Assembly: GCA_009702965.1 (NCBI GenBank)
Contig: WLHB01000001.1
Location: 30,788-94,787 of the forward strand
Direction of reading: 5' to 3'
Source of the DNA: Actinomycetota bacterium
GTDB lineage: Bacteria > Actinomycetota > Actinomycetes > Nanopelagicales > Nanopelagicaceae
Length of the DNA stretch: 64,000 bases
The notes beneath the pieces are model-generated. The model did not search any database, had not been told where the DNA came from, and worked only from the letters and a program-made list of their open reading frames with translations. Below, in pieces: positions 23,350 to 25,559 of the stretch. Within the stretch, counting starts at the first letter, position 1, and every line of letters begins with the position of its first letter. Position numbers and translations under genes: made by a program.

Positions 23350-23721
23350 ATGCCACTTTCTGAGCATGAAAAACGCCTCCTAGCGCAGATGGAAGAAGCT
23401 CTCGCAGCTGATGACCCGCGCCTTGTGAGCGCTCTGACTGGCCCCGCGAAGGTTTCTCGTAACCGCGTCTTTCTCGCCATCGCCTTGCTTCTCGGTGGAA
23501 TAGCTACCCTCTTTGCAGGCTTAATCGCCCAAATCACCGCCATTGGCCTTCTCGGATTCCTTGTCGCCCTGACCGGCGTAGTCCTCATGCTGCGCGCATT
23601 CACAGCACCTGGCGCGCTCATTTCGGCGACACAGAAGGGTAAAGGGCGTGCTCCACGCTCGCAGAAAGGCTTTGGAGATCGACTTCAAGACCGCTGGGAT
23701 CAGAGAAACTTCGACCAGTAA
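23350..23721 (+). CDS. DUF3040 family membrane protein
   Basis: MPLSEHEKRLLAQME..L..DDP, two TM helices and ..RW..R tail; usual position before mraZ. Confidence 0.88.
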   Translation: MPLSEHEKRLLAQMEEALAADDPRLVSALTGPAKVSRNRVFLAIALLLGGIATLFAGLIAQITAIGLLGFLVALTGVVLMLRAFTAPGALISATQKGKGRAPRSQKGFGDRLQDRWDQRNFDQ

Positions 23722-23755
23722 GACAGACCCGCCCATACCGAATCCAATCGGAGCG

Positions 23756-23780
23756 AACCCGCCCATGAGGCGGGTTTTTT
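23756..23780 (+). terminator. Intrinsic terminator
   Basis: AACCCGCC-CATGA-GGCGGGTT followed by a T-run. Confidence 0.8.
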
Positions 23781-23827
23781 CTTGCCCATTTTTTAGACCC
23801 TGAAGAGAGGGAGCTGTAGGGCAAGTG

Positions 23828-23916
23828 CTGGGAATGGGTGGGGTAGGAGTGGGGGAGAAAGGGGAGATCGTGGGGAAAGGTGGTTGAAAAAGGAGGAAAA
23901 GGGAGTAAAGTGGGGG
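23828..23916 (+). repeat. Array of GTGGG-like boxes, MraZ operator (dcw promoter)
   Basis: Boxes at about 23828, 23838, 23849, 23860, 23870, 23880, 23890, 23900 and 23910, with 10-11 nt period. Confidence 0.8.
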
Positions 23917-23968
23917 ATTAAGCGCAGGTTCACGCATAGCGCTTACAACCTTGGGGAAGGGGTCAGAG

Positions 23969-24400
23969 ATGTTTCTTGGTACTCACGAACCCCGCCTTGA
24001 TGAAAAAGGTCGCCTCATCCTTCCCGCCCGATTCCGCGAAGAACTTTCTTCAGGTCTTGTTATCACAAAGGGACAAGAACGTTGTCTCTATGTTTTTCCA
24101 GCAACTGAATTTGAAACATTGACACAGACCTTGAGACAAGCGCCAGTTACTGCAAAAGCAGCACGTGATTATCAGCGCGTGATGTTTGCAGGCGCACACG
24201 ATGAAATTCCTGATCGTCAAGGTCGCGTAACAATTCCACAAGGTCTTCGTACATATGCCGGACTTGAAAGAGAGTGCGTTGTTATTGGCGCAAACACTCG
24301 AGTTGAAATTTGGGATGCACAAGCGTGGAACAAATATCTCGCAGATCGTGAAGAAGGTTTTGCCGATGTTTCAGAAGAAGTATTTCCAGGACTTTTTTAA
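23969..24400 (+). CDS. mraZ: Transcriptional repressor MraZ
   Basis: MFLGT..LDEKGRL..P and DRQGRV duplicated motif. Confidence 0.96.
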
Positions 24401-24448
24401 AAAACAAAAACTTAATAGCAGTACAAGCAAGTAAAACAACTACATAGC

Positions 24449-24571
24449 GCTCTCTCGATTGTGGCCACCGTCGACCCCATGCCTAGGTTTTAAGGCCGAG
24501 AGCAGACGCCCCTTCCCCGGCGCCTGCTTTTGTGAGATCCGTCGGCCGGCGGTGACCAGAGTTGAGAGAGC
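24449..24571 (+). ncRNA. mraW RNA motif (actinobacterial cis-regulatory RNA candidate)
   Basis: Hairpin AGCAGACGCC-CCUUCCCC-GGCGCCUGCU with the CUUCCCC loop, enclosed by a long stem (GCUCUCUC...GAGAGAGC), between mraZ and rsmH. Confidence 0.85.
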
Positions 24572-24617
24572 AGATTCATTCAATAAAAAGTAATGAAAGT
24601 CAGAAGTGGGGGAGAAG

Positions 24618-25559
24618 ATGCAACACATATCAGTAATGCGCGATCGTTGCGTTGACCTCTTAGCCCCTTCTATTGAGATGCATTCCCAACCTGTAGTAGT
24701 TGATGCAACTCTTGGATTAGGTGGGCATACAGAAGCGCTACTTTCTCGTTTCCCTCAATTGACGGTAATTGGAATTGATCGCGATACTCGCGCACTTGAG
24801 AAAGCAAAGAAGCGTTTAGCAGTCTTTGGTGACAGGGTAAAGACATCTCACGCAATCTTTGATGAGATAAGCGAAGTTGTCGCAGCTCATGGCTTCACCC
24901 AGGTCTCTGGAGTTCTCTTTGACCTTGGAGTCTCTTCAATGCAGCTTGATGAGCAAGATCGAGGATTCTCATACTCACATGATGCTCCGCTCGATATGCG
25001 AATGGATGCAACCCAAGGAATAACCGCCTTCGAAATTGTTAACCACTACGAACCAGGAGCGCTAGTAAAGATTCTGCGCACATTTGGTGAAGAGAAGTTT
25101 GCAACTCGTATTGTCGAAAACATTGTCAAAGCACGCTCGCAAGCACCTCTGAATTCGACAATGGAGCTTGCCACATTGGTTAAAGAGAGTATTCCAGCAG
25201 CCACCCGTCGCACGGGCGGAAATCCAGCAAAGAGAACCTTTCAAGCGCTTCGAATTGCAGTCAATGACGAACTCGGCGCAATTACTCGTGCCCTACCCCA
25301 GGCTCTGGATCTCGTTGATGTGGGCGGCCGCGTAGTTGTGATGTCCTTTCAATCACTTGAGGACAAGATCGTAAAAGAGATTTTCGTTGAGGCCTCAACT
25401 TCAAAGAGCCCACGAAATCTCCCTATGGATCTCCCTGAATATGCTGCGAAATTTTCCTTAGTAATTAGAGCGAGCGAAAAAGCCAGTGAACTTGAACAAG
25501 ATGAGAATCCTCGATCAACATCTGTTCGCCTCCGCGCAATCGAGAGGGTGGCCGCATAA
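24618..25559 (+). CDS. rsmH: 16S rRNA m4C1402 methyltransferase
   Basis: DATLGLGGH, DLGVSSMQLD..RGFS, PLDMRMD and FQALRIAVNDEL motifs. Confidence 0.96.
   Translation: MQHISVMRDRCVDLLAPSIEMHSQPVVVDATLGLGGHTEALLSRFPQLTVIGIDRDTRALEKAKKRLAVFGDRVKTSHAIFDEISEVVAAHGFTQVSGVLFDLGVSSMQLDEQDRGFSYSHDAPLDMRMDATQGITAFEIVNHYEPGALVKILRTFGEEKFATRIVENIVKARSQAPLNSTMELATLVKESIPAATRRTGGNPAKRTFQALRIAVNDELGAITRALPQALDLVDVGGRVVVMSFQSLEDKIVKEIFVEASTSKSPRNLPMDLPEYAAKFSLVIRASEKASELEQDENPRSTSVRLRAIERVAA

Follow-up and report, generated by a model that had tools for sequence, protein, structure and literature searches.

A predicted trans contact between the loops of the mraW RNA and a DUF3145-leader hairpin in Actinomycetes

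Introduction

What does the CUUCCCC loop of the mraW RNA, which lies upstream of rsmH (mraW) in Actinomycetes, pair with? The motif (Rfam RF01746) was catalogued in 2010 as a probable cis-regulatory RNA whose status as a switch was unknown (PMC2864571). The supplement text of that paper holds no descriptive comment on mraW, and another of its supplements may discuss the loop. In the literature covered, which leaves out most subscription papers, we found neither a mechanism for the mraW RNA nor any RNA in the leader of DUF3145 genes. A 2016 study by Maeda reportedly concerns RNase III and the mraZ mRNA, going by its title.

The window analysed here is a stretch of 64,000 nt from a member of the Nanopelagicaceae that contains mraZ, the hairpin, and rsmH. 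The original prediction for this DNA held that the loop is an anti-SD sequence, which toggles between a long-range contact silencing mraZ and a local pseudoknot silencing rsmH. We compared this proposal with loci across the phylum and with a second, unlinked hairpin.

The window carries a diverged mraW RNA

The features of the locus, all on the forward strand, are as follows.

23838..23916, +, mraZ promoter read from the sequence, with -35-like TTGAAA at 23884-23889 and -10-like TAAAGT at 23906-23911
23838..23916, +, GTGG-like boxes over the mraZ promoter with a period of about 10 bp (box type GTG(G/T) with 6-nt spacers, per PMC12957436)
23949..23962, +, mraZ leader site GGGGAAGGGG (23953-23962) within a weak CCTT/AAGG mini-hairpin, overlapping the ribosome-binding site and complementary to the mraW loop
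23969..24400, +, mraZ, 143 aa
24449..24571, +, mraW RNA motif in a diverged Planktophila form, a long stem with a terminal hairpin
24511..24518, +, terminal loop C-CUUCCCC, predicted to kiss the GGGGAAG loop in the DUF3145 leader
24608..24614, +, rsmH ribosome-binding site GGGGGAG, compatible with the loop through one G-U pair; not general
24618..25559, +, rsmH (mraW), followed by ftsL, ftsI and mur genes

The closest relatives of the window's MraZ come from Ca. Planktophila/Nanopelagicaceae, and the GTGG-like boxes on the mraZ promoter are likely, judging by their sequence, the MraZ operator. An intrinsic-terminator-like hairpin with a T-run (23752-23783) follows a small membrane-protein gene upstream of this promoter. 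GGGGAAGGGG (23953-23962) ends 6 nt 5' of the mraZ ATG at 23969, and CCCCTTCCCC (24509-24518), two of whose ten complementary bases sit in the top of the stem, is its exact 10-nt reverse complement. On both strands of the 1.12-Mb genome, this 10-mer has two sites only, the mraZ leader and the loop. GGGGGAG (24608-24614) lies 3 nt 5' of the rsmH ATG. These positions and the 10-nt complementarity, as given in the original prediction, were all correct. GGGGRRG stands near a candidate start in 12 of 1949 open frames of at least 100 codons, with mraZ and rsmH among the 12. Additionally, the fold of the region (-74.4 kcal/mol; z -4.5 vs 200 shuffles) reproduced the long enclosing stem, which opens at 24449 and ends in a terminal loop of 8 nt whose opening costs 0.0 kcal/mol.

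Against RF01746, the window copy scored 19.8 bits (E 0.37), below the gathering score of 50. Matches at E<=0.001 were obtained in 25 of the 41 genomes searched, all at the locus upstream of rsmH; among genomes of the same genus, 11 of 24 reached this E-value and none reached the cut-off. The window element has the CUUCCCC hairpin loop and the position upstream of rsmH/mraW in Actinomycetes. Its likeness to the family lies in the locus before rsmH, the long stem and the invariant CUUCCCC loop; the differences are that the Planktophila form stays under the cut-off and that the candidate partner in the DUF3145 leader is outside the family. Collectively, these features mark the window element as a diverged orthologue of the mraW RNA at the corresponding locus, and not as a formal Rfam member. 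The 6C/B11 family model gave no match in the window at its gathering score, nor at E<=10 in 23600-24800.

We gathered 245 rsmH/mraZ loci, of which 219 had a mappable mraZ start and rsmH; the 26 dropped comprised 11 without mraZ, the others being cut or unmapped. The Nanopelagicaceae set holds 96 loci, with some genomes represented twice (77 distinct loop/leader pairs), and the other-family set holds 121 loci from 38 families, including one unpublished genome (G030) on which no conclusion rests. CTTCCCC was found in the mraZ-rsmH spacer of 217 of the 219 mraZ-bearing Actinomycetes loci; among the loci sampled from the phylum's other classes (n=59), none had it. The one variant of this C-loop found was CUUCCCU. 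In many families (e.g. L015, L070, L255 and L258), the segment between the motif (or mraZ) and rsmH holds a short open frame that is hydrophobic and has a ribosome-binding site of its own; such a frame also precedes rsmH in motif-less classes and is possibly an unannotated small membrane protein of the division operon.

Complementary sites in cis are a feature of Nanopelagicaceae

In Nanopelagicaceae, the mraZ leader (n=96) carries GGGGAAG at 82 loci, GGGGAGG at nine and GGGGGAG at one, and GGGGRRG precedes rsmH at 91 of 96 loci. With the G-run as the sole anchor, purines predominate at the two positions that follow. This conservation (92/96 and 91/96), with variation mainly A/G opposite the two U of the loop, argues for a loop that alternates between the mraZ ribosome-binding site at long range and the rsmH site in a pseudoknot, as do the uniqueness of the 10-mer in the genome and the modest median opening costs of the two sites in this family (3.4 and 2.8 kcal/mol). 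Moreover, GGGGRRG is present at mraZ in 11 of 25 other families, compared with 0 of 157 control starts (from eight control genes, with tsf left out) and only 3 of 55 in motif-less classes. In C. glutamicum, the mraZ leader ends in a 6-base match to the loop (PMC3890552), and the M. tuberculosis rsmH has GGGGAGG (PMC3526491).

Against this alternation, the last 30 nt before mraZ at the 121 loci of the other 38 families contain the exact site at 1% and GGGGRRG at 35%, and the leader site there is mostly GGAGG (79%). Motif-bearing genomes with an mraZ ribosome-binding site lacking complementarity, the observation named beforehand as counting against the switch, thus do occur. The suggested covariation between loop and leader was not found: the loop itself is invariant, and the loop flanks of a genome gave no better pairing with the mraZ leader of that genome than permuted flanks did (77 genera, p 0.69; Nanopelagicaceae, p 0.16). 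Two Nanopelagicaceae loci, L168 and L195, have a disrupted mraZ-leader site and an intact loop. In these two leaders, which belong to genomes that are not closely related, GGGGAAG is replaced by a similar insert of 10-11 bases starting with GGCCA within a retained stem. In the window, the cis sites cost 6.9 and 8.6 kcal/mol to open, and the predicted linker is shorter than 15 nt in 24% of 101 Nanopelagicaceae loci versus a median stem of 36 bp. Furthermore, the G-rich mraZ leaders also pair best with the 16S tail, so a strong ribosome site together with a GTGG box explains much of their G-richness.

On the rsmH side, the start signal downstream of the hairpin outside Nanopelagicaceae is often of a non-complementary type among the loci listed, and the rsmH pseudoknot is therefore not general. 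In C. glutamicum and C. diphtheriae, the mapped 5' end of an rsmH RNA falls within the motif or 3' of it (PMC3890552, PMC5784534), which leaves some rsmH transcripts without the loop. The C. glutamicum end lies in the 3' arm of the outer stem and has no scored -10 box (ends from PMC3890552, alignment from PMC2864571).

Collectively, these results support the loop-compatible sites, with GGGGAAG at mraZ in 82/96, only as a feature restricted to Nanopelagicaceae; they refute the switch as a general mechanism, and alternation between the two start sites is very unlikely to be the function of the motif. A contact with the mraZ leader of Planktophila as a non-exclusive, lineage-specific addition is conceivable, if doubtful.

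The loop persists in genomes without mraZ

The labels Streptomycetaceae and Streptomyces-like genus g26 used here are inferred from gene order and sequence. In 18 of 36 Streptomycetaceae genomes, mraZ is absent within 1.5-2 kb of rsmH, and eight of these 18, from six genera, have an intact C-loop without an adjacent mraZ. A genome-wide search for PF02381 found none in five of five tested genomes of this kind (98-99% complete), and no GGGRRG was found between the promoter and the loop in seven of seven mraZ-less leaders examined. It follows that the loop depends on neither mraZ mRNA nor MraZ protein, and its retention in genomes without mraZ also counts against the cis switch. A dependence of the loop on mraZ, the impression given by one genus in which 10 of 11 genomes lack both, was overturned by wider sampling with these eight genomes. 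mraZ has been lost patchily in Streptomycetaceae, at least twice on the rsmH tree (L632-L656), and in most genomes of this group the 3' bulge of the motif holds a further CTTCCCC.

The same observations bear on a feedback model in which MraZ itself binds the loop, recognising either the RNA or a minus-strand box that resembles an operator. The joint absence of loop and mraZ in 10 of 11 genomes of the one genus fits such binding, and the minus strand resembles the G-rich operator repeats. However, the five tested genomes without a MraZ match keep the loop intact, which largely refutes it. In addition, MraZ reads phased GTG(G/T) boxes in duplex DNA (PMC12957436), and the leader site is out of phase with the boxes (17-65 nt). 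We regard binding by MraZ as extremely unlikely.

The DUF3145 leader carries a conserved, covarying hairpin

CCTTCCCC was listed in four complete Planktophila genomes, and among the 53 of its 61 matches that were examined, four of four genomes showed a DUF3145 gene preceded by a hairpin whose loop reads GGGGAA(G). DUF3145 was not found in the window's own assembly (76% complete); the hairpin is present in all four other Planktophila. PF11343 (DUF3145) was found in 29 of 30 genomes (24 families), and GGGGAAG lies in the leader at 27 of these 29 loci (23 families), against a shuffle rate of 1.9%. In an alignment of 25 of the 27 rows (two same-genus rows were left out), the stem of this G-hairpin has double changes at eight of eight pairs, and 91% of cells are paired versus 28-54% when slid; the structure was drawn from the same sequences, which partly favours control b by construction. 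The 1x1 mismatches on the mRNA strand comprise 12 G-U and 2 A-C, an excess that favours the mRNA strand. No Rfam match to the hairpin was found in the 10 loci scanned.

In metagenomes, 108 of 117 matches to the G-hairpin pattern precede DUF3145, six are too short to tell and three are unrelated; a pattern search of viral contigs gave 0 matches. The three without DUF3145 (L713, L788 and L789) represent an unrelated leader with twin hairpins that have a common CUAGUCACC loop; it stands before an unknown open frame and has no Rfam match. In 121 Streptomycetaceae the pattern is multi-copy, and of 30 loci examined, six are DUF3145 leaders and most others lie within reading frames. The DUF3145 protein is predicted to form a ferredoxin-like domain (pLDDT 90.7), and fold searches gave no match at E<=0.001 (best Z 7.8) and no specific structural relative.

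The two loops are complementary and largely co-occur in Streptomycetaceae

Both hairpins, the exact complementarity of their loops, their covarying stems and, in Streptomycetaceae, their largely joint retention or loss are observed features. Each loop typically consists of one unpaired 5' base and seven complementary bases on its own sense strand. Both are cheap to open (median 0.0 and 2.1 kcal/mol), and the 7-bp kiss, calculated as a free duplex, is short and amounts to -11.2 kcal/mol. No complementarity extends beyond the loops into their flanks. The CUUCCCU variant still pairs via G-U, and the genome carrying it keeps the G-loop.

Among the 36 Streptomycetaceae genomes, 26 have both loops, nine have neither, one has the G-loop only and none has the C-loop only; mraZ is missing in eight of the 26 with the C-loop. 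Every joint loss falls within one genus (g26), so the events are few and a Fisher test overstates the association. The g26 genomes that lost the loops have differing remnants; in one of them the stems are intact and the loop has a single substitution. Both loops are kept by a genome that nests within g26 on a tree that is poorly resolved there. Together, the nested genome and the differing remnants suggest more than one loss. Some genomes depart from the pattern: C. glutamicum has the C-loop (alignment of PMC2864571), yet PF11343 was found in none of 14 control genomes including it; G033 (93% complete) has the C-loop and no PF11343 match; and G070 (88% complete) and G079 keep the G-loop with the C-loop absent. 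No compensatory change between the C-loop and the G-loop was found. Both are invariant, and the case for pairing is accordingly built on complementarity and co-occurrence.

In a M. tuberculosis mutant, mraZ, mraW, ftsL, ftsI and Rv2256c were induced together, among 41 changed genes (PMC4450064), and Rv2256c is a DUF3145 gene (PMC13090312). This co-induction could come from shared transcription control, and the pattern as a whole could equally be produced by a protein or transcription regulator common to both elements. Based on the sequence evidence, we give about even chances to a predicted kiss in trans between the CUUCCCC loop of the mraW RNA and the GGGGAAG loop of the DUF3145 leader.

Alternatively, a hairpin excised from the transcript could be a 6C-like small RNA that acts on many G-rich ribosome-binding sites, with DUF3145 and mraZ among its targets. 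The C. glutamicum rsmH 5' end, in the outer-stem 3' arm and without a scored -10 box, is what would be expected of such processing; in 12 of 85 genera, another C-rich stretch is found 3' of the mraW loop; and several targets would account for the invariance of the loop. Nevertheless, only 12 of 1949 open frames of the genome have GGGGRRG near the start, and losses of the loop coincide exactly with losses of the DUF3145 loop. In 6C (B11), as in the predicted kiss, C-rich hairpin loops of the same phylum pair with single-stranded G-rich leaders without a chaperone (PMC6486639). The difference is that 6C is free-standing with many targets, whereas the two candidate partners described here are both parts of mRNAs, and the G side is itself a loop, invariant and carried by a covarying stem. 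We consider a 6C-like RNA quite unlikely.

Other C- and G-rich hairpins in Planktophila

A second long hairpin, with the loop CUUCCCCUU, has a zincin (PF10103) gene on one side and an M48-like peptidase frame on the other in L458 (G000:C58 near 16448, minus strand) and L452-L456. It is present in six of six Planktophila with a compensatory stem change and no Rfam match, and is absent after the best zincin match in 25 other loci. Its mismatches favour the antisense (G) strand, and it is possibly a small RNA. About 100 nt before the zincin gene, the same six of six Planktophila have a conserved GGAAG-N18-GTT, which we take to be an ECF-sigma-type promoter. GGGAAG upstream of this gene was rejected as a pairing site, as it fits that promoter.

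CCTTCCCC also follows an SOS box before a LysM gene divergent from lexA, in four of four Planktophila plus G216 (L567-L569, L571, L494 and L505). In several of these leaders, it forms a mini-hairpin whose sequence is the reverse complement of that of the hairpin in the mraZ leader, and about five other families also have C-rich words upstream of the LysM gene. The recA leader of Planktophila has a conserved long hairpin after an SOS box with no convincing Rfam match (L457, at G000:C12 near 85850; L401, L405, L406, L408 and L409). Its CUUCCCC loop in the window's genome was dismissed as chance: 24 other recA loci listed have no CTTCCCC, and five of five other Planktophila have a different loop. 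A dnaE leader loop was rejected as well, with a hairpin-loop copy in just one of 20 dnaE1/dnaE2 loci from 10 genomes.

Some of these sites would fit a third party, namely an RNA-binding protein or a factor reading the hairpins on DNA or the antisense strand, that recognises GGGGAAG/CTTCCCC hairpins as parallel sites of a regulon and not as partners. The post-zincin hairpin (6/6) with its G-strand lean and the LysM site after an SOS box (4/4) point that way. The strand signal of the mraW stem is mixed and leans antisense (49 G-U vs 68 A-C over 83 genera; 83 vs 156 in Nanopelagicaceae, with the lean driven by few positions), and joint loss and co-induction fit a third party as well. However, the two main loops, each on its sense strand, are complements of one another instead of copies, and reading both on one strand places the extra loop base on opposite sides. 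The search turned up no candidate reader. The DUF3145 protein persists in genomes that lost both loops, and its fold is generically ferredoxin-like. Overall, we find a third-party reader rather unlikely.

Discussion

Our preferred reading is a contact between two mRNAs. A 7-base kiss in trans is predicted between the mraW loop of the division operon and the loop of the unlinked DUF3145 leader, and a pairing constraint acting from both sides would be the reason that neither loop varies. The division transcript, either whole or as a processed hairpin, would act on DUF3145 translation; this direction is favoured because the G-hairpin is placed close before the DUF3145 ribosome-binding site, whereas the mraW loop usually stands at a long distance from the ribosome-binding site that follows it. 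The contact might in turn affect how the division transcript is processed. The mraZ leader of Planktophila carries a second G-site, which could compete for the loop in cis as an addition specific to this lineage.

ColE1 RNA I/II is a known pair of regulators with kissing hairpin loops. S. aureus RNAIII is another loop-loop regulator (PMC6486639). As in these systems, the contact predicted here would be nucleated by complementary hairpin loops about 7 bases long. The pair described here differs from both systems in that unlinked chromosomal mRNA elements are involved and no extended duplex is predicted. More broadly, the mraW hairpin and the DUF3145-leader motif might be obligate partners in a class-wide mRNA-mRNA kissing circuit, in which lineage-specific loops (the mraZ leader, the SOS-controlled LysM leader and the post-zincin hairpin) join a 7-base code coordinating division post-transcriptionally. 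We hold this wider circuit to be plausible but short of probable.

The mraW RNA itself was already known; the DUF3145-leader hairpin is uncatalogued. The obvious cis explanation of the mraW RNA has been removed as a general mechanism, and one specific candidate partner in trans is named in its place, which makes this orphan RNA testable. If the predicted kiss is true, it would be a rare conserved trans contact between two chromosomal mRNAs, it would add a new RNA motif, and it would tie the uncharacterised DUF3145 family to cell division in the class that contains the mycobacteria and streptomycetes.
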